Below are positions 1 to 55,315 of a stretch of DNA of 64,000 nucleotides, in pieces. Below the pieces are notes generated by a model, which was not told the DNA's origin, did no database searches, and saw only the letters and a list, made by a program, of their open reading frames with translations. The DNA comes from Rhina ancylostomus. Taxonomy: Eukaryota. The DNA lies in NCBI GenBank assembly GCA_030265395.1, contig JARFYF010000104.1, positions 70,276,261 through 70,340,260 of the forward strand, given 5' to 3'. Every line of letters begins with the position of its first letter. Positions within the stretch are counted from its first letter, which is position 1. The translations under genes were made by a program, and so were the position numbers.

Positions 1-250
1 GCATAGATAGGGTAATGAGAAATCTTTTTCCTGTGGGAATCAAAAACAAGAGGCCAAAGTCACTGCCAGAACATGTGGTGAAATCAGATACAATCACTGT
101 GTTTAAACGATATTTAAGACAGGCATTTAAATTGAAACTTAAATATAAAGCAGGCAAAATAGGTTACTGTAGATAGGCAAAAAAGGTTGGCATGGACCTG
201 GTGAGCCGTAGGGCCCGTTTCTGTGCTGCACAACTCTATGACTCCATGAC
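1..250 (+). mobile_element. CR1-clade LINE 3' end fragment
   Basis: 3' UTR-like ggcatggacctggtgagccgtagggcccgtttctgtgctg...ctctatgactc. Confidence 0.65.
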
Positions 251-829
251 AAGGCAAGAAGTCCATGGAGCATACGGATATTGAATGAGAGAATCACTGC
301 ATGAGAGGAAAAAACCTGATGAGCCAAATAACTTCCATGTAAGGTCAGAAAAGTGAACATCAAATTATTTTAGTACCTGATTCACAACAAGTCAAATTCT
401 GTTTACCCTTTCTGCCCACATCGTTATACTTTGAACCGTTTATAAGGAGTTCCCAATTCACATCAGTTTACCCCAGTTTCCTGTCTTCATGCACGGAAGA
501 TCTTAACAGTATGCACAAGTCAAACATCCATCCATAATTATTTACACAATCTAGTCGTGAATCGAGTAAAACATCCAAAGAAATAATAGGCAGCTTTGAA
601 ATTTCAGAACACTTTTAAACTGTAAGGCAAGCATTGTGAATAAAAACAAAGTATACATATTAAAAAAAACATTCACTATGTATTAATGCTTAAAAATATT
701 CAGGTAAATGACTAGTTGCATAATGAGTTATTGTTTTATGGAATAATGAAAAGTGCCCAGATTATAAGGTATCCTGCAAAGTGAGTAATACTGGCAAGTG
801 TATTACAGGTATACGTGTGTAGCTTGAGC

Positions 830-1375
830 ACCGAGTCCCATCTGGAGTATTGTCTTCATTCTTTGCAATAACACTAGGAAGATTATGACTTCTTTGGAGA
901 GGGTACAGAAGAAACAGGTTTCAGAAGACAGCTTCAGGGATGAAGATTGCATTTACATGCACAGACAAGTGAAACTGGGATTGTTTACTTTGGAGCAAAG
1001 GCTGCTATGAAGAGAATTGATACAGATGGATAAATTATAAATGATTTAGATGGATTAAATAAAGGGAAGCTACTTCTAGTGTCTTTAGGATCCATAACAG
1101 AAGGTACAGGTTTAAAGTGATTGGCAGAAGAACCAGAGACAGCATGAGAAAAAGCCTGATGCAAAATGTTTGGGATTTGTAGTTTGCTACCAGATGAGGG
1201 AAGTGGATATAGATTTGAAACACAATTGGCAAAACAATTGAAGGAGAATATTTTGCAGAAATATGGAAAAAGAGGGGAGTGGGATTAAGTGGATTGCTCC
1301 CTGGAAGAACTGGGACAAGCATGATGGGCTGAATGGTCTCCTATCTATCATGCTGTACTGCTATGTGATTCTGAA
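830..1375 (+). mobile_element. Decayed CR1-clade LINE 3' fragment
   Basis: catctggagtattgt (HLEYC), ttggagagggtacagaag (LERVQK), 3' end atgatgggctgaatggtctcct. Confidence 0.65.
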
Positions 1376-2821
1376 GGCCATTAAACTTTGCGGTCGCTAT
1401 AACATTAGGCATCAAAGACAACATGGCCAGCAATAGCATTTCTTTATACTTTGCAAGGAGCTTCAAAGATGTAATTCGAAGCAAAACTAAGTGGCAAAGC
1501 AAAGCACACAGCTCTCACCCTTGATGCATTAAGGTTTGCTTTTAAAATCTGAAGAAACAAGTGACAATCCTCAAGTTCAGAAGAATAGTTTTTAAAGATC
1601 TTAAAAATGTTTTAATGAGGTAATTGTTAATATTTACATTACTCATACAAAATTTACAGTGTATTGGGGAGGGGTGGGGAAGGACGAGGCGAACGGGACT
1701 AGCGGGATTAGTCTTTCATAGAGCTGGTACAGACTTGACAGGCCAAGTGGTTTCTTGTGATCTAATGACATTGGAGCATCTCTGCTTTGTCAGCAACTTG
1801 CCACAAAACGTGGCAGATGATGAAATACCATGTCTCCACTGAACTCACTCAAGTTACAAGCAATTCTCCATACATTCTCAGATGTACTGTGTTGAAAACT
1901 GCTTTGCATAATGATGTCATGCAAAATGCAATTGTTTGTAATTTGGGAGATTATTTTCAGCAATATTTCAATTTTTATTTTAAGTGGCAAAATCAGAACA
2001 TCTTATAAACTTATGCACTCAAGTTTTTTTAAGTACAGTACTTCACAAATGGCAATTTTAAATTTAATTTACAAGATGCTCTTATTGCCTGACAAACTGT
2101 TTAATGTTAAAATAGATGCATTGCCTATTTTATCCTCATTTCAAATCTGATGTTTATAATTGGTATATTAAGATCATTAATGCATTAATCACTGTTTAAT
2201 TCAATACATGCTACCATTTCTTTTAACTTCTTACCCAATTCCATGGTATAATAGATTCCTATAGAAGTCTTGAATGCAGAACTCTGACAGAGTTCTTCCA
2301 AAAGCCTGTATCTTTCTCCAATTTGCACCTCGCAACAGTTTCCATTATTTTACTGACAAGACTAATAGATTTTTTTCATGGACCAGGCCTACAACACTTT
2401 TTAAATCTTCAGTTAAATGCTTACTTTTATTACCATGCAACTTCACTATTATCTTTGGTGACCTTCCTGAATATCTTTCAGTCATGGTTTCCACCCCAAT
2501 CTTTCACATGGGAACATGCATAACCTTTCCCCCATCCTCAGGGAATCTGATAAATCTTTACCCCTTTCAAACATCTCTACAGATCAAATTTTCCTCTGCA
2601 TAATCAGTGGGGAGAAGAGAAAAGAAAGCAACTTAAGCTTTTTTCAGAAATTTTACAGAGGAAATAATAGCCTGATCAGGATTTCCAATCACAGGCTGAA
2701 GTGCAGCCCACTGTGACTGCTGAGTATTAGTCCCTGTGCCTGCAGACTTCTGCAAATTCAAATAATAATGATGATTGGCAGATGTGCCAGCTCTGTAAGT
2801 AGCACATGGTTTGAATCTTAC

Positions 2822-3019
2822 CTATGGGGTCTTCCACAGGGATAAGAGCTTTGAGGAAATTGAGCCAAAACGTCACCTGATTCAACTGTATTTCATATGG
2901 TTCCTCTAGACTGAAAAGCACCAAGTGGATAGCAGTCGAATCATTTGTTGCGAAATAATCGTAACAGCAGTAGTAGGCAGGATTGCCAGAGAACTCCCAA
3001 ACATTAAAATCACCAACAC
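2822..3019 (-). CDS. DAPK1: DAPK1 exon 22 (198 nt), ROC domain
   Basis: ttttag|GTGTTGGT...ATAG|gtaaga; GVGDFNVWEFSGNPAYYCCYDYFATNDSTAIHLVLFSLEEPYEIQLNQVTFWLNFLKALIPVEDPI. Confidence 0.95.
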
Positions 3020-4025
3020 CTAAAAAGAGGGGTGAATGTTTCAATAATACAGCTGCTTAATAACATTTTAGAAAAACTTGATGCAAGTTAACAGTTGCAT
3101 ATACTCTATTTAAAACTGCTGAATGATTAAAGTAGTGGCAAAAATTTAAGAATCGTTACACTGCTACGAAGGTGCCAGAGAAACTCAAATGGCAGCCAAA
3201 TATCTACTGAAAATNNNNNNNNNNNNNNNNNNNNNNNNNNNNNNNNNNNNNNNNNNNNNNNNNNNNNNNNNNNNNNNNNNNNNNNNNNNNNNNNNNNNNN
3301 NNNNNNNNNNNNNNCTACTGAAAATGAAAATTAACTAAATGTTATTTTTTAAGTTGACACAGTTAATCTAACCTGACTCCTCCCATGAAGAGTTTGCTGG
3401 TCATCCAATATCACTGCCAATCAACTATTTTCAGCTGAGATTTAATGATCATTGCCTGCAGGTTGTTTGACTGTGTGCAGCATCACATCCAAGCCATGAC
3501 ATGCTTGCATTTGACTTTCTAATAAGCATGCCCAACAGTGATTGTACATTTATCTGAGTGAAGGTCTCTGGCTGATTTCTTTCCCCAAAGAAATTATTCT
3601 GGGGACCACTGTAAAATGCTATGCTGGCTAAGATCAGCTGGCCTGGAGTAGGAATTCAATCTGGTTCTTCCTCATTAAACAGCTTAGCTACTCAACACCA
3701 TCAAGAGAGCAAATGCATAAATAATGCGATAATTTTAAAAAAACTGCTAGAGTAACTGCTGCACAAACACCACAAACTGATTTACTGAGGTCCTGAGGCA
3801 AGTGGTGAACTAACCTTTTGTATTCATTTGCAATTAATGCTTTAAAATGTTGCTTTAACTATTCAAATATTAATTCCTAACAACGCAACACAGAAACAAA
3901 AAGTTTATTTTCAATAAACACAATACTAAGTATGTCTTTTATATAAAAGAACGCTTTTGAATTCATAAGTAAGCAGCTCAGGGGTTCCAAGTTTTCATTG
4001 CTATATTAAAGCTGACATTTCTTAC

Positions 4026-4214
4026 CATTAACATTAGCATGTTGTATGTCAATTGCTTTAGTGCTCTGATCATCAATTGCATAGTGAAGATTGTGCGTAG
4101 GTGAAACGAAAGCTTGGAGCATGCCTTTGGTTAGGCTGGGTTCAAACATCATGCTCCGGCTCCTTACACTGACATTTTCACAGCCAGGGTACAGATTGGA
4201 AATGCTCACTGAAA
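4026..4214 (-). CDS. DAPK1: DAPK1 exon 21 (189 nt)
   Basis: tttcag|TTTCAGTG...AATG|gtaaga; VSVSISNLYPGCENVSVRSRSMMFEPSLTKGMLQAFVSPTHNLHYAIDDQSTKAIDIQHANVN. Confidence 0.95.
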
Positions 4215-5934
4215 CTGAAAGAGACAGGTCAATCAAATAATGAAGTTTATAAATTTAACTAGCAAATATTCTCAAAAATCATGATCTAACAAAAGATGTA
4301 AACTTGTAAAATGTTATAAAGTTAATAGAGTGGGGAGGGTATCTTCATTGACACTTGGATTACAGGCTCAGATCAGAACACAGTACTGACTGGGCAGTCA
4401 CAGCCATCCCTAATATTTTGTTTTGGAGCCCAGTGTGGGCCACATACTATTGTGTCAGCTCTTCCAGTTTTAACTTCAGACCTGATCTACAGAATCTCAG
4501 TCAATCATCTTGACTTTCTGCCTAGTGCAACAGATATTAAAGTAATTGCTTCCGTGGATATCTTTCAATTCTTTCCACATTCTGATGTAAAAACCATGTC
4601 ATTCATTCATCTTCAGTTTTATTTTTAAGCAGATTATTGCACCAGGAATTCTTTGTCTTCTCTGCTTCTGCCCTCTTCTTCCAAGTCTATCAATATGTGC
4701 GTTCATTAGAATGGAAGATGAAACATGAAGGACTTCATTTAAAATTTTACCTTACTTGTACATCCTGCAGAATCTAACGTAATTTTGAATGTTTTCCAAT
4801 TTCCATAATTTTTATTACAAAGATTTTTGGCTTTTGGACTTGGCTCTTGAAATCCCATATTGGGCAATCTAATGGAATCTACTTGCCATGCAGTCAAAAT
4901 CAGCAGATGTTCTATCCAAACCAACTGATGCACATTTGCCCTGATCCACATTAAACTGTGTCTCAACGAAGCCTAAAACCCCAAGTACCACATCAACAAA
5001 ACTGTATGCTATCACAGTAGAATTGATATAATATGCAGTTGTAGCAATTGGTGTAACTCTATGACTGAGCATGGTACTGGTGCTTTACTTGGTAAAATAT
5101 AACAACTTCGTCTTGAACATTTTTTCTGCAGACATAGAAAACATCAAATGGTGCCTTGAAGCTGATGACTAGAGACCCTCTAGGTAAAGTCTCCCAAACT
5201 AAATGTGCATCAAATTTTTATACTCTTAAGATCAAAGGTAACAGGTGATTCAATAGCTACAATCGCATCATTTACTTCAATATTTTGAGCCTGACAATGC
5301 TTCCATTGAGCTGCACATCTATAATGCGAGCCATGTCTGAAGGTTCAAACAGCTTTGCTGGGACAAAATAATTCACAAGGATGGTCTAAAAGCTTCTGAG
5401 GACAGAGATCCCAGGCACCCAAAATTGATGTTGTGAGGGCTGACACTCTGAGTACACAAATATCCCAAATACTGGTAGAGCAAATCTACCCAGGACCATG
5501 TTTGATCTGCTAAGTAACAATATCAGTCTATTCTGCAAGCTTCCACGAACTTAGTCACAATGGTGCAAAATAACTTAAGCCATAGTTGTCTGGTTTGATG
5601 TAGGCCAATTAACATCACCCCATTTGTCATTGTCTTTGGCTGAAAATATCTCATGGTCACATCACTTTGCCAGCCCCCTGCTGTGGTCCTGTAGCCTGTG
5701 CTCTGTAGACAGTACTATTTGTTTACAAAGCTGTTCTTTTAACTTCAATCTGATTATTGATGCACTTTGCATTAAGAACTGAAGACTGGTTCTCATTTGA
5801 ATTAATGCATGATATAAGTCACATAATTCTATAAGTCCTGAATCCCTAACAGACATTTTTTGGGAATGAGCATTGAACAAGAAACTTTTAGATGATGTAA
5901 ATACTGGGCTAATAAATTACACTTTTAAAAGTAA

Positions 5935-6540
5935 ATAAACAATAGGACCAGGAGTGGGCTATTTGGTCTTTTGAGCTTGGTCCACCATTCAACACGTAGA
6001 TGGCTGATCATCTATTGCAATACTATATTCTTATTCTCTATGTCTTTTGCACATACAAAGTTATCTATCCCCTTCTTAAAAATATACAGTGACTTTCCCT
6101 CCACAGCCTTCTGTGGTCATGAATTCCACATGTTCACTATCCTATACCTGTTGAATCGTCTCCTTCCCTTGGGAGATTTCAGTCCCAAATCTCTTGTCCT
6201 ATAACCTGAGGCACTGAACACTTGTTCTTCAGTGTCCCACCAGGGTAAACATCCTCCCCATATCAATGTCCAGCCCAGTCAGAATTTTGTAAGTTTCAAT
6301 GAGGTTCTTCTTTCCTCCTTTGATTGAATATAAACCTAGTCAACTTAATCTCTCCTCATACAGCTGTCCCACTATCTTAGGAACCAGGCTGGTGAACTTT
6401 TGCTGCATTCACTCAAAAGAAGGTATATCCTTGATTGGTAAAGAGACCAAAACTGCCAGGTGTGGTCTCCATAAGGCCCTGTATAATTTTAGAAAACATC
6501 CTTGCTACTGTAATCAAATCATCTTGCAATGAAGGCCAAC
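5935..6540 (-). mobile_element. CR1-clade LINE 3' fragment
   Basis: Reverse-oriented CR1 3' UTR and C-terminal RT remnants, similar to 23990-24645 and 55938-56080. Confidence 0.65.
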
Positions 6541-7575
6541 TCTCCATAATTTAGAAGAATTTTAAATAATAAAATTAGAGATGGAGGTAGAGGTTTTAAG
6601 ACACAGTTTCAGTCAGCAGGACCATTGCAGATGGTTTAGTGATGGTGTGTGGGAGAGAGAAGGCAGGATGAACAGTTTTGTCAGACTGGATTGTTCAAGG
6701 TGGGAGGTCAGATCAGGAGGAGAAAGACCTTAAGAGGTAGTGCAGAGATAAGGAGGGATGTGATTTATGATCTATGATAAGGATTTTAAATTTAAACACA
6801 AGGGATAGGAGCAAGAGAATGATGGCAAGATCAGGATGTCAACAAAGAATGGGAGAGGACAGAATGAGGTGCCATCTCACATGGATAAATCTCGACTATT
6901 TTTTACCATTTTATGTAACAGAGTCACTGACATTTGAAAGCAGGCAACAACTGTGACAGTTCACAGGGCTGACTTGGCCACAGAGAAGGCAGCAGATCCC
7001 ACAGTTCCAAAATTATATTTACAACACTGGATTTCTGCTATGATAAGGCCCCAAAATGCAAAACAATAATGCATTTATGCCATTATTTCAGAGTATACCT
7101 AATTTTAAAAGCAATTCTGTGACTCATGCTGTAAGCACTGAAGTTATCTGCATTTGTATTGCAATAGATTACCTTGGAGCCTGGAGAACCAATATCCTAG
7201 ATGATTCCTGGCATTTTCATTGGTAGACTTGATAGTCTTATACCAGTGACAAACTTCTTAAAGCTGNNNNNNNNNNNNNNNNNNNNNNNNNNNNNNNNNN
7301 NNNNNNNNNNNNNNNNNNNNNNNNNNNNNNNNNNNNNNNNNNNNNNNNNNNNNNNNNNNNNNNNNNAGGTAAATATTTAACTGTCCGTATATTTCGCCTT
7401 CTTTCAACTGAAAGAATGATTCCCCATGAGTTTAACCTTCTGAGACGGTCAAAGTCTATCAATATTGCCACTGTGCTTTTCTTTTCAAAACACAAGGAAT
7501 TACTTCTCATTGTGATCTTTCCCGTAATCGATAGGAAATAAAATAAATAATATTAAAATATGTTTCCCATTACAC

Positions 7576-8209
7576 TGTGACGCCACTTTCAGGGAATTAT
7601 GTATATGAATACCCAGATCACTTTGTTCCTCCGCACTCCTCAGTACCCTACCATTTACTGTGCATGTCGTACCTTGATTTGTCCTTCCAAAATGCAACAC
7701 CGCACACTTGTCTGCATTAATTTATATCTGCCATTTTCTTGCCCATTTTACCAGTTGCTCCAGATTCCTCGCTGTCCACCTCGCCTCCAATCTTAATTTC
7801 ATCTGCAAACTTTCTGATCCAATTTATCACATTATCAACTAGCTCATTGATATAGACAACAAACAACAAAGGCCCCAGCACAGATCCCCGAGGCACACTA
7901 TTAGTTACAGGTGTCTAGTCTCAGAAACAATCATTCACTATCACTCTGTCTTCTTCCACACATCCAATTTCGAATCCATAGTTTCTGAGACTCCTTAACT
8001 AACGTCCCATGTTGTACCTTGTCAAAGACCTTACTGAAGTCCATCGATGGGACATCCACAGCCTTCCCTTCAACTACTTTCTTGGTAACCTCCTCGAAAA
8101 ACTCTAGAAGATTCGTTGAACACGTTCTACCACGCACAAAACCATACTGTCTATTCTTAATCAGACCTGGGTTGTCCAAATACTTGTCTATCCGATCTCA
8201 CAGAACACC
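7576..8209 (-). mobile_element. CR1-clade LINE RT fragment
   Basis: ORF 7931-8179 (QYGFVRGRTCSTNLLEFFEEVTK...DFSKVFDKV) and ORF 7500-7700 (LHFGRTN...DLGIHIHNSLKVASQC). Confidence 0.88.
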
Positions 8210-8739
8210 TTAGGGTTAGGGTTGGGGGCTACACATGTTACCGCAGACAACTGTGCAATACATCGAGGCCAGAGATTCATCAACAATCAACACATTTCAA
8301 CTGGGGCATATTTCTTCCGATTCTTTTCTCAAAAAAGGTGCGCGGTTGTGCCTATGAAACGAGAGAAGGTAACACAATGAGGCGTGATGCTTGTGACTGA
8401 TCAGCATGTCAGCCGCGAGGCCTAACGTTCGACATTTCACTCTGGTCAAGTGAAATGGATCTCATCCGGTTGAATGCCAGATTCTAATACAACAGACATT
8501 TGGTTCAGTAGGGATTTGACAGCCCAGTAAAGCCATGAGCTACAGGATTTTGTCATTCATTAGTTGCGTCATGAATCAATACAACTTGTTCTCGTAATCA
8601 CACGCATATCGGCTATACTCGGGAAGAAGTTGGGGGTGAAAGTCAAATATTCCACTTAATTTCTTGCGAAGAGCAAACAGAATAAATTCTTCCAAAACCA
8701 ATGAATGAAGTTGAATTCAATTTCGTTTTTCTTCTGCAG

Positions 8740-9260
8740 CGAATTTGTGAGCCATCGTCATTCTGTCCCGCGGAAAGTGCTGTCTTTCCAAATGTCCCGT
8801 TACCTGGTCTTCATGGCCATAGGTGGCCTACTGGTGCGGATGTTTGAAGTAATTCTCTCTGAGATTAATGCTGGCTATTTCCCAAATTCATTGAAGAATT
8901 TAACTCCAATCTGCAGTCTCCACCATGCCCTCAATCATTTTTTTCCATTGATTGCTCCGTTTAGCTAACTATGGCCTTCGCCTTTGATCGATTTTTCACC
9001 TTTTGTTGTCAGAAGCTACGAGCGAAATATTGCACCGAAAAGAAACTGCTGCTCGGGTGATAACAGTGGCTTTTGTCTCAAGTATTTTACAAAATATCCC
9101 AATATATTTCATCTTCGCACATCGAGAAGTAATTGACAACGTAGCTTGGTACTGTATATTTAAATCATACTTTTACACCTTGACGATATTGGAAGCATTT
9201 TGGTCATTTGAAACGAATTTAACACCATTTGCACCATTCCTGGTGATTATGCTGCTAATC
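8740..9260 (+). pseudogene. Truncated class A GPCR pseudogene, GPR139-like (end of TM1 to TM5), nested antisense in DAPK1 intron 20
   Basis: Follows a polypyrimidine tract and acceptor (tttcgtttttcttctgcag|). Reading across 3 frameshifts gives ANL*AIVILSRGKCCLSKC/RYLVFMAIGGLLVRMFEVIL...TPICSL.../SIDCSV*LTMAFAFDRFFTFCCQKLRAKYCTEK/TAARVITVAFVSSILQNIPIYF...IDNVAWYC...LTPFAPFLVIMLL. It has a DRF motif at the end of TM3, TM3 and ECL2 cysteines, a TM5 P-F and two in-frame stops. Confidence 0.85.
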
Positions 9261-11185
9261 TATATTAACGGATTTATAAATCTTTGGTTGGGATGAGAGA
9301 GCCAGACTTCACAACCATAAACAGTGAAAACTTACATTCATGGCTGCCAGTGCTCCACATCTTTAATTAAATGATATTTTTATATCTATATTTATCTATA
9401 TCTATAAAATATATACAANNNNNNNNNNNNNNNNNNNNNNNNNNNNNNNNNNNNNNNNNNNNNNNNNNNNNNNNNNNNNNNNNNNNNNNNNNNNNNNNNN
9501 NNNNNNNNNNNNNNNNNNNNNNNNNNNNNNNNNNNNNNNNNNNNNNNNNNNNNNNNNNNNNNNNCTCGTTGTCTTTTAGCAGATAAACCACCAGTACTGT
9601 GCTTGGTTGTAGAGCATTTGCATCAATTAGTTCTTCCTCCCTGCCTTGATTTTTGCAAATTGGCATGATGTATTAGATAAAAGACAGTAAAACTTCCCCC
9701 TTACTCCTGATAGCATTGAGTTTATCCAGGGAACATGTGAATCTCTTGGAATAATGTTTTAATCCATGTTGGTTGATCTAAGACAACCAGGGTGGTGCTA
9801 TAGTGTTACAAATGTCTTTGAGGTTTTGGAGGTTGATGTTTTCCTTCATTTCCAGCACCTCTTGTTGCAAGTATACAACTCTGGTGATTGCAAGTAGATG
9901 AGTTTGGACCTGACTGTGAAGCCTGCTGGAAACGAATCAGTTATGAACACTGACCAAGAAGCATTGCCTGCAGAAAGTGATCACTTGGAACCAGAGGGAA
10001 CAGTGCCCATGGAACCATTCCCCAAAAGGTGGGGAATTTTCTTAAGAAAATGGGGGAAAAATACTGACAAGAAAAAATACACATTTGTAAAAGAACAGAA
10101 TTTAAAAGACCAGAATTCTAGTGTTGGAGATTGTAATCCGAAACTGACTTCCCATTCCCAGCTGCTCCCCAGTTTCTCTTAAAATAGGACCATACATAAC
10201 TATACATAAATGCACATAAACAACTACTACACTTGCCAGTATGAGAACATTTCTTTTGAAATTCTCTTGTTAGTAGAATTAAGCCGCAAGGTGCAATGAA
10301 AACCACTTCAAAAGAGCTCATGACTGAAAGGCAGGCATATTTTTTATTTTTTTAAATCCTCCTTTAAGTTACCCCACCTGTTTTTGTGAAACTGCACAGA
10401 ATACCAGCTGTACTAAAAAACAATGTTCAGAGCACAACTTCAAGTCACTATTCTATTGAATTTAAATTTATGTTAACTATACTTATCCCAGTCTTCAAGC
10501 CCATTAAGAACAATGGATACTTAGCCATCTCAAACAATGTTGGTCTTACATAATGCACAAAGTGATAAATTTCCCACTGTGGCAAACTCTAAACCAAACA
10601 GTACTTTTGCACAATTATAAGCAAACAATATCCTCAGAGAGCCAGACTCGAATCCTGGTTTTTCCAACATTCACATAAAATGCTCATAAATGGCAGATAC
10701 ATTAAGGTAGTTTAGCTGTTCTTGATTAAGTCTTGGAGTGTAGTATTTCACTAGCATTTAACTGACACATCATTGAAAACTGAATGGGGTTCTATGTTAG
10801 ACTGCATCTGCTCCTCCCTACTGAGTGGCTTCTGAGATATTGGATGGAGGGCACAATATAGATAGCCACAAATATGAAAACCACACATACAGTTTGGAGG
10901 AGACCAAGAAAATCACACATTATTGAATGGATAAATCTATATGGGAGAATTTACAAACCTGAATCTTCAATCATCTGTCAAAATCAACAACACTATCATT
11001 TGACAGCAACCTTGCTGGATTATTAATGCCATTTTAAGAAGTGAAATAAGACAATATTCAGTCTTGACCAGTCACGTAATGATCTGCAAAGCAGTTGTTT
11101 TAATAGATGGTTATTTCAAAATGAGACTGCTAAAATAAGGTAGACTGTGACCAAGGGAAATCACCGTTAGATTGGTTAATGATAC

Positions 11186-11411
11186 CTGTTGGTTTTGATG
11201 ATGATGATGGGGAAGGAGGATAACGAGTTGAGTTGGTCGATGACAGCCTTGGCCTGCGTCTCCTGAAGAAACTTCGCAGAAGTCCACATTTAAGAGACTC
11301 CACAAGTGCTGTTTTTCCTGAACCTGAATGTCCAAACAACTTGAGCTTTATTCGGACTTGGGAATTCTGAGAAGGCCTAAGCTGTTGAATGAAAATCCCT
11401 CTGTGTGTATC
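11186..11411 (-). CDS. DAPK1: DAPK1 exon 20 (226 nt), ROC domain P-loop
   Basis: ctttag|GATACA...ACAG|gtatca; DTHRGIFIQQLRPSQNSQVRIKLKLFGHSGSGKTALVESLKCGLLRSFFRRRRPRLSSTNSTRYPPSPSSSSKPT. Confidence 0.95.
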
Positions 11412-52661: not shown

Positions 52662-55315
52662 GTTCAAATGGGATTTGGACTGAAGATGAGCAACCCTTCA
52701 GCTGTTCACGCAGTTTCCCTTAAACTGCCAACTTTCTGGATGCTGTGGCCCAGACTGTGGTTTGACCAAGCAGAGGCCCAGTTCCAGATTAGACAGATAT
52801 CTTCCGACTCCACATGCTACTATTGTGTGGTGAGCGCCCTCGACCAACAGACAGCCGCCCAGGTCACGAAACTTCATCCTGTCACCCCCGGAAGGTGGCA
52901 AGTAGGCAGCATTCAAAGCACTGCTCATTAGCACCTTCGGCTTCTCACGGTGGGAGCGAGGCGCCCGTTTGCTGCACCTGGACGGTTTGGGAGACAGGCC
53001 ACCGTCCACGCTGATGAACGAAATGCTGGCCCTGGCAGAAGGACACAAGCCCTGCCTCATGTTCGAGCAGGCCTTTCTAGAGCAGCTGCCCGAAGACATA
53101 CATCTACTACTTGCTGATGCGGATTTCAGTGACCCCCGGAAGGTGGCAGCCCGGGCAGGAGTGCTGTGGAAGGCCGAGAGAGAAAGCGAGGTGTCCGTCG
53201 CACAGATCAGCAGGCCATGGGCCCAGCGGCAGACCAGACCAGGCCTGGCAATGGAGTGCGCGCAACCCAGAGGCAGAAGTGAAGGAGCCAATGTCAGTGG
53301 TGTTTCTACCACCAGCGGTGAGGTGCAGAAGTCCACCAGTGTCGCCTGCCCTGTGAGTTTCTGGGAAACGCCAAAGCCAGCCACCACTAACAGCTATGGC
53401 AGCTGGCCACCAAGACAGCCTTTTGTTCGTCTGGGACAAACAATCAGGATGCCACTTCTTGGTTGACACCAGAGCCGAAATCAGCGCTTTACCACCGATG
53501 GGGCGCAACACCTGCAACAGGGAGCCAGGACCCAGCCTCAGGGCCACGAACAGTGCACATTATGCACCTACGGTACCCGCACGGTGCAGCTGCAGTTCAG
53601 CGCCAGCTGGTTGACGTGGGACTTCACACTGGCCACCGTGGCCCAGCCACTCGTGGGGGCAGATTTCTTGCGGGCCCAAAGCCTACTGGTTGACTTGCGC
53701 GGGATAAAACTGGTACATCCCAAGACTTTTCAAACATTCTCCTTGGGCGAAGCCAAGTTGCCGGCCCCACGCCTGGACTCCGTCATGCTGTCGGATAACA
53801 AATTCACCAGAATCCTGGCAGATTTCCCATTGGTTTTGGCACCGCAGTTCAGGGCAGCCATACCCAGACAGGGAGTGCAGCACTGCATCCCAACCAAGGG
53901 ACACCCCTCCCATGCCCGCACATGACAGCTTCCCCCGGACAAGCTCTGCCTAGCAAAGGAGCAGTTTAAGCGGATGGAGGAGGTCCGGCAGCCCATGGGC
54001 TTCCCCCCTGCACATGGTGCCCGAAACAGGCAGAGGCTGGAGACCGTGCAGCGCCTACTGTCGGCTGAACAAGGCCACAACCCCTGACCGCTACCCCATA
54101 CCTCATATACAGGACTTTGCAGCAAACCTGCACGGGGTGAGCATGCTTTCCAAGGTAGACCTCGTCCGGGGATACCATCAAATCCCAGTTCACCCTGAAG
54201 ACGTCCCCAAGACAGCGCTCATCACCTCGTTCGGCCTATTCGAGTTCCTCCAGATGCCTTTTGGCCTAAAGGACACCGCACAGATGTTCCAGCGGCAGAT
54301 GGATGCTGTAGGATGCAACCTGGACTTCATATTCATCTACTTGGATGACATCCTCATTGCCAGCTGCAGCCACCAGGAACACTTGTCCCATCTCCGCCTG
54401 CTTTACTCCTACTTGAGTGACTTCAGCCTCACCATCAACCCGGCCAAATATCAGTTCGGGCTCGATACCAATGACTTCTTGGGCCACCGAATTACCAAAG
54501 ACGGGGCAACTCCCCTGCCTGCCAAGGTAGACGCGGTCCGCCACTTCGCCCGCCCCACCACAGTCAAAGGCTTGCAGGAATTCGTTGGTATGGTCAACTT
54601 CTACCACCGTTACCTCCCCTCAGCAGCACAGGTCACGTTGATCTTTGTTCACCCTGATGTCGGGTAAGGGCAAGGACATTACTTGGGATGAAGTGGCTGT
54701 GATCACTTTTGTCAAAGCCAGAGAAGCCTTGCCAAATGCTGTGATGCTGGTGCACCCCAGAACAGACATTCCAATCACCCTCCCAGTGGGCGCATCCAAC
54801 ACAGCAATCAGTGGGGTGCTGGAGCAACTCATCGAGGGGCGCCGGCAACCCCCAGCATTCTTCAGCAAGCACCTGTGGCAGCCTGAACTCAAGTATAGTG
54901 CTTTTGACTGGTAGTTGCTAGCACTCTACCTGGCAATCCGGCACTTTAGGTACTTTTTAGAGGGCAGGCCGTTCACCACATTCACGGACCACAAGCCATT
55001 GACCTCCGCATTCACGAAGGTGTCCGATCCCTGGTCAGCCCGTCAGCAGCGACATCTGTCCTACATCTCTGAGTACACGACAGACATCCAGCGTATCTCA
55101 GGAAAGGACAATATGGGGGACAATGTGGTATCCCGGCCCTGTCACAGGGAGTGGACTGNNNNNNNNNNNNNNNNNNNNNNNNNNNNNNNNNNNNNNNNNN
55201 NNNNNNNNNNNNNNNNNNNNNNNNNNNNNNNNNNNNNNNNNNNNNNNNNNNNNNNNNNCCACCCAAACAGCGTCTGCCCCAAACTGTGGACTTTGGGAGA
55301 GGTATTGCTGGTTCT

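Follow-up and report, generated by a model that had tools for sequence, protein, structure and literature searches.

The receptor-like DNA at positions 8740-9258 of the window, the 64,000-nt stretch of Rhina ancylostomus DNA analysed here, is an old, DNA-derived and dead copy of part of a rhodopsin-class receptor gene. As a locus it is unremarkable, a pseudogene fragment, and the family behind it is large and apparently undescribed in print. On balance we favour reading it as a dead DNA-level fragment, likely copied from a tandem cluster into an intron of DAPK1, and as a member of a family that is likely chemosensory.

The region, on the plus strand, is the front half of exon 2. The preliminary description had read it as TM1 to TM5 of a G protein-coupled receptor, and every receptor motif that it quoted was located there, spread over three frames. 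In a tblastn search an intact relative of 326 aa from a stingray record (P0002) aligned as four frame pieces (combined E 1e-53) that cover aa 23-196 at 61-80% identity. Pfam gave no 7tm_1 match for any of the three receptor pieces of the window, because they are too short and frameshifted; the intact paralogues tested matched 7tm_1 in three of three cases (E~1e-19 to 1e-20), above the cut-off. The reading frame is interrupted by two in-frame stops (TGA at 8748-8750 and TAG at 8962-8964), a 4-bp deletion near 8795 and 2-bp insertions near 8937 and 9041, and the same three indels appear against each of four intact paralogues. The match breaks off in TM5 as abruptly as first described: homology ends at 9256-9258, codon 173 of ~303, identically against all four. 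Exon 1 is gone, and the copy has neither the open frame nor the seven helices of a functional gene. It was called dead from the outset, rightly, and is almost certainly a pseudogene of this receptor family. Its nearest paralogue is also broken, but through different lesions, and no lesion or truncation was common to the window copy and either L002 or the C68 148.9-kb unit. For the lineage of the window copy pN/pS was 0.5, a value based on few changes (22 and 12).

Table 1. Features of the receptor island and of the DAPK1 intron around it (window coordinates).
Feature	Position	Strand	Evidence
DAPK1 exon, aa ~742-805	4024..4214	-	tblastn of P0122
DAPK1 intron holding the island	4215..11185	-	GT/AG borders read
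100 N, masking the left junction of the island	7267..7366	.	
Non-coding stretch that lies ~0.6-1.1 kb upstream of exon 1 in intact receptor units	7367..7560	+	
Internal LINE (reverse transcriptase) fragment, 0.63 kb	7572..8204	-	
Pair of exact telomere-type hexamers where the LINE fragment meets the intron	8210..8221	+	
3' half of the single coding intron of the receptor gene, with acceptor	8231..8739	+	
Truncated pseudo-exon 2 covering TM1-TM5, with three frameshifts and two stops	8740..9258	+	
Single-copy tail not of the family, with an AT-rich microsatellite at its end	9259..9418	.	
146 N between the contig of the island and the rest of the intron	9419..9564	.	
DAPK1 exon, aa ~668-742	11186..11411	-	tblastn of P0122

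As shown in Table 1, the contig at 7367-9418 is one decayed receptor unit. Its upstream DNA (7367-7560) is also found 5' of exon 1 in the tandem cluster on C68 and had 38 matches in the genome; the best non-self match (87%) was on contig C65424, which also carries the best match (84%) to the intron and exon 2 of the window copy. The LINE fragment, which matched RVT_1 at E 1e-4 and 9e-4 (neither passing the Pfam cut-off) and had very high depth in sequencing run X1, stands in place of ~1.56 kb of the unit (2035 to 3597 in paralogue coordinates, skipped in the alignment) with exon 1, its proximal promoter and the first half of the intron. Exon 1 was sought in the window and the adjoining 50 kb and was not found. 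At the LINE/intron junction a degenerate third hexamer extends the telomere-type tandem to 8227 (8210-8227); this tandem is unique within the window and occurs once more in 1.12 Mb of retrieved loci. The hexamers suggest repair of a break, which may have been telomerase-assisted. Intron and acceptor are retained, as had been claimed, in the form of 510 bp of the 3' half with AG at 8738-8739; this sequence is 84% identical to L002 and 70-75% identical to other paralogues. The break at 9258 is followed by 110 bp of single-copy DNA, which gives way to an AT microsatellite (repeat at 9381-9406). The tail at 9259-9418 matched only itself in the genome, comparison of 9250-9418 and of the intron flanks with the family loci gave no match, and the tail is possibly host intron DNA.

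Because intron and upstream DNA are both present, the copy very probably did not move via RNA. Intron loss, poly-A and 5' truncation, the marks of a processed retrocopy, were all missing and the cut is at the 3' end, in agreement with the original view of a DNA-level copy rather than a retrogene. That view extended to a family spreading by segmental duplication or transduction. A large family with dispersed DNA copies was supported, and retroelement transduction was not, because the LINE piece is internal, lies in a deletion and has no 3' end or poly-A beside the receptor piece. A LINE that moved the fragment, by 3' transduction or as a retrocopy of unspliced RNA, would account for the LINE piece inside the island and for the AT-rich tail. 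However, that piece is antisense and sits between two collinear parts of the unit, upstream non-coding DNA came along, and the receptor has lost its 3' part, whereas retrocopies are cut at the other end, with no poly-A at the break; we regard such a move as very improbable. We infer segmental duplication or break repair as the route of the copy. Duplicated (unprocessed) odorant receptor pseudogenes are scattered through segmental duplication, and the window copy is like them in being a decayed DNA-level fragment far from its cluster with a repeat insertion, although its placement depends on two unbridged N stretches. In the course of events that we propose, one gene unit of a several-hundred-member, two-exon shark and ray family would have been copied out of a tandem cluster and would have entered the DAPK1 intron long ago by segmental duplication or break repair; the copy lacks ~1.56 kb with promoter and exon 1, a deletion filled by the LINE fragment.

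DAPK1 lies on the minus strand and the receptor piece on the plus strand, inside a 7-kb intron (4215-11185) that we take to be intron 20 under human-style numbering with a non-coding first exon. The DAPK1 exons keep their order over more than 15 N stretches, so scaffolding in this area is generally sound; a pair of small exons, at aa ~186-209, was not found. We think it fairly probable that the island is truly nested in this intron. In X1, the single sequencing run examined, which may be the assembly's own sample, no contig bridged either of the N stretches flanking 7367-9418, and coverage was absent at 7248-7439 (92% likeness) and at 9319-10323, holes that prove nothing. One X1 contig agrees with the window over 8606-9040 and continues after 9041 in L002-type sequence. 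Its interpretation as an allele was rejected, and it is best read as a graph chimera over an identical stretch of 39-40 bp.

The 2-kb contig might instead be an ordinary broken unit of a C68-type cluster that was scaffolded into DAPK1 by mistake. N stretches flank it, its very first base already belongs to the family homology, and small unplaced contigs carry many close paralogues, the nearest on contigs of 1-14 kb; the C68 cluster has many broken units that carry insertions, and a comparable island at C104:39.9 Mb also adjoins a 100-N stretch and is missing exon 2. Against this, the right-hand junction falls within the contig and leads into single-copy, non-cluster DNA, similar islands with in-contig junctions occur at two other interstitial sites, and the order of the DAPK1 exons is kept across many gaps. 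We consider misplacement somewhat unlikely and retain the nested position. Elsewhere in the window, a remnant of a Gypsy-type LTR retroelement was seen at 52700-54700 on the plus strand of a DAPK1 intron; judged by their motifs, its frames are presumably gag-, protease- and reverse transcriptase-like. Another plus-strand feature, an open frame of 377 codons with low complexity (L050:317-1447), lies ~39 kb before the start of the window, just past the last exon of DAPK1, and is probably an exon of a neighbouring gene.

Dispersal of this subfamily at other sites is real. On the same scaffold as the window copy, a 3-kb island of the same subfamily (L180, C104:39901848-39904750) has upstream DNA followed by exon 1 and the intron, both apparently intact, before it ends at its 100-N stretch, and exon 2 was not found within 30 kb. 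This island continues, inside one gap-free contig, into ~4.5 kb without cluster-like DNA, compared to 28-90% cluster-like DNA in pieces of the clusters. A 2-kb island at C17:32203000-32205000 (L183), which like L180 adjoins a 100-N stretch on one side, has cluster-type upstream DNA and no receptor exon. Among 19 dispersed copies, five were in gap-free 10 kb and four in closed spans of 2.4-7.2 kb; the gap spans around these copies did not separate real dispersal from misplacement. A common 5' boundary of the dispersed islands (unit positions 1781, 1808 and 1858) was considered and proved not to be special; several cluster-type copies likewise begin aligning near 1807. Among the first 100 matches listed, 89 were on scaffolds of known length, and 55 of these lay within 2 Mb of a scaffold end vs 8 expected, a bias that reflects either subtelomeric spread or a habit of the scaffolding. 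Copies pile up near the ends of C2, C12, C22, C46, C50, C53, C54, C57, C62, C63, C64 and other scaffolds, and the small scaffolds C70-C81 are rich in family members. The window locus itself matters only as a record of units leaving their clusters.

The family is arranged as tandem clusters, near scaffold ends, and as strays. An intact gene has two coding exons, of ~23 and ~300 codons, separated by a phase-1 intron with a median length of 1.5 kb (178-4577; 47 gap-free introns of the 52 found among 99 members). A 33-nt degenerate motif had 444 exact matches in the genome and its reversed control had none. Since the motif catches 65 of the 99 intact members and 17 of 28 matches of a distant query, we estimate ~680-730 loci. 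Motif matches made up 18 of the 19 dispersed loci retrieved, all of them family members, as were all 128 candidates scored among the 3529 of the protein search. Two other estimates were discarded: 369 loci by capture-recapture, which is below the hard count of 444, and 1006 loci, which was inflated by non-family matches. Counting intact against broken copies, as the preliminary description had proposed, showed no internal stop in 114 of 129 rows of the protein search, a sample biased toward intact genes. The birth-and-death pattern that it had suggested is visible on C68, where intact and broken units alternate over 150 kb. The 99 intact members have a median identity of 51% and, since no pair among them is 97% or more alike, are not haplotype duplicates. 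Residues D2.50, DR3.50, P5.50, N7.49 and Y7.53 are kept in 96-99 of the 99. Where an organism is named, the best 120 of 2247 database relatives come from sharks, rays and skates, and most carry the label 'probable GPR139'. No description of the family expansion was found in the openly accessible papers searched. The passages of a 2025 GPR139 review reached by a term search make no mention of sharks (PMC12208981), and in the portion of PMC12294341 that was available GPR139 is named in a reference only.

Assignment of the fragment to a 'probable GPR139' family was correct as to the database label and incorrect as to identity with GPR139, the family being a separate lineage. The genome has one true GPR139 (C112:20.82 Mb), to which family members are 22-34% identical, and a GPR142-like gene (L152, C50:8900869-8901576) that is 54% identical to GPR139; the family members are the next matches in the genome after these two. 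The L152 frame seems to end early after TM7, with two stops inside the match. The intron AG is at the identical codon in 103 of 105 loci, GPR139 included (five loci are duplicates), and because the GPR139 intron has the same codon and phase, the kinship with GPR139 is real. A common intron position and phase, together with nearest-neighbour status by sequence, puts the family in a GPR139 superfamily; the reciprocal best match, common clade and ligand residues expected of GPR139 orthologues were not found. Among solved structures the best match was to the GPR139/GPR142 pair of L-Trp/L-Phe orphan class A receptors (PDB 7VUG, 9M42; PMC5430874, in part), specifically to human GPR139, and was weak (E 5e-12; next match 5e-8). 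GPR139 and the family have in common a short N-terminus, a phase-1 intron before the TM1 asparagine, W6.48 (98 of 99 members) and a non-canonical NPxxY. They differ in the C3.25-ECL2 cysteine pair, which is present in 97 of 99 members and absent from GPR139 of this genome, and in copy number (hundreds vs one). Unlike in GPR139 and GPR142, P6.50 is present in only 6 of the 99.

In a quick maximum-likelihood tree of 82 rows, containing 38 of the genome's 99 members, GPR139 and GPR142 formed one clade (99) and the family formed another (99) with a salamander orphan, P0334. P0334 sits on a long branch, and orphans of coelacanth, silverside, anchovy and bichir are the next groups. Its matches to the 119 scored loci were about equal (29-37%), as expected of a one-to-many orthologue. 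On these sequence comparisons the family is closer to the salamander and bony-fish orphan than to GPR139. The orphans of salamander, coelacanth and ray-finned fish are probably the 'GPR210A/B' subtypes; Rinne et al. (2019), who name GPR210 subtypes, make no mention of sharks in the part of the paper available (PMC6504862). In the clusters seen, GPR139-related orphans of bony vertebrates appear to be few-copy, in contrast to the hundreds in the shark and ray family. Several amphioxus proteins are likewise labelled GPR139 (P0369, P0372), and the quick tree placed them neither in the GPR139/GPR142 clade nor with the shark family.

The family could consist of GPR139 duplicates that have kept the sensing of tryptophan and phenylalanine, or of neuropeptides, in brain and gut, an idea with which the best solved-structure match, the shared phase-1 TM1 intron and the near-universal W6.48 agree. 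Four residues, F109, H187, W241 and N271, are needed for activation of GPR139 according to the part of PMC5430874 available. All four were present together in none of the 99 members; 53 had one, 40 had two and 6 had three, and F109, H187 and N271 were kept in 36, 9 and 8 members, respectively. A single true GPR139 and a GPR142-like gene also exist apart from the family, the identity to true GPR139 is low, and the clades are separate with 99% support. We judge retained GPR139 function to be improbable and treat the family as a lineage of its own.

As to its role, we lean slightly toward a putative chemosensory repertoire. The family is large and clustered, evolves by birth and death, and has a variable pocket with a conserved signalling face, as is expected of chemosensory receptors. 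Like OR, TAAR, V1R/ORA and V2R/OlfC, it has tandem clusters, pseudogenes, stray copies, a variable pocket, a conserved inner face and, in part of its promoters, EBF-like sites; unlike them, it is of unrelated origin and has two coding exons. The olfactory organs of cartilaginous fishes are large, yet their olfactory receptor repertoires are held to be very small (PMC10116579, in part), and all four known families are small in these fishes (PMC10116579, PMC11979771, each in part), with 2 canonical OR and 32 V2R genes in catshark (PMC11979771, in part), so the present family would be ~10 times larger than all four. More tentatively, and with slightly less than an even chance of being right, the ~700 genes may be a fifth vertebrate chemosensory family of sharks and rays, ~10 times the known olfactory repertoire, born from a GPR139-related orphan that is few-copy in bony vertebrates and spread by chromosome-end exchange and stray DNA copies. 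Several hundred intact variable-pocket receptors hidden behind an automatic 'probable GPR139' label would, if chemosensory, overturn the small-repertoire count; if immune, they would reveal a large family of immune sensors.

The promoters bear on both possibilities. The signature sought was an EBF (O/E) site plus a homeodomain site. With one mismatch allowed, an EBF-type site was present in 20 of 47 proximal promoters, at a density of 0.47 per 400 bp vs 0.06 far upstream and 0.09 in introns. This is a 5-8 fold enrichment, and the sites are mostly near -105 to -115, directly 5' of a TATA box. Odorant receptor promoters have an EBF site plus a TATA close to the start. Exact EBF palindromes are rare (4 of 47 promoters), the homeodomain motif was not enriched overall (156 vs 143 ± 13), and none of 14 promoters of the window's C68-type subfamily has the one-mismatch EBF-type site, all of which count against a chemosensory role. 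So does the list of the 50 most enriched genes in a catshark brain-plus-olfactory library, which, in the portion available, includes no GPCR (PMC11979771). The targets of EBF factors also include genes of B cells, fat and other neurons (PMC3113313, in part), which weakens the chemosensory reading and favours its main rival, an immune or inflammatory repertoire of leukocyte sensors for peptides or microbial metabolites. Birth-and-death evolution and variable pockets fit that rival equally well, and the OR genes known from sharks are expressed in organs such as the spleen rather than in the nose (PMC11979771, in part). Such a repertoire would be comparable to the expanded FPR or MRGPR families. 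However, no immune GPCR family is known to have several hundred members at a median identity of 51% with so short an N-terminus (exon 1 of ~23 codons), and the EBF site with a TATA near the start resembles odorant receptor promoters. We rate an immune repertoire as unlikely and continue with the chemosensory one.

In the proposed mechanism, remodelled pockets would give every intact member a small ligand of its own, all members would signal through one shared G protein, and EBF-type sites would drive expression in sensory neurons. Entropy was 2.19 bits at 25 pocket sites, compared to 1.67 at 31 other outer sites (p=0.006) and 0.77 at 75 inner sites (p=2e-8). From a variable pocket and a conserved inner face we infer many ligands and one downstream path, although variable outer halves are common in non-sensory families of paralogues. 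Positive selection was not shown, dN/dS being under 1 in every site class, which counts against a chemosensory role. The family is under purifying selection, with dN/dS of 0.23 over 42 independent pairs, 0.11-0.13 at the inner face and 0.22-0.31 in the pocket.
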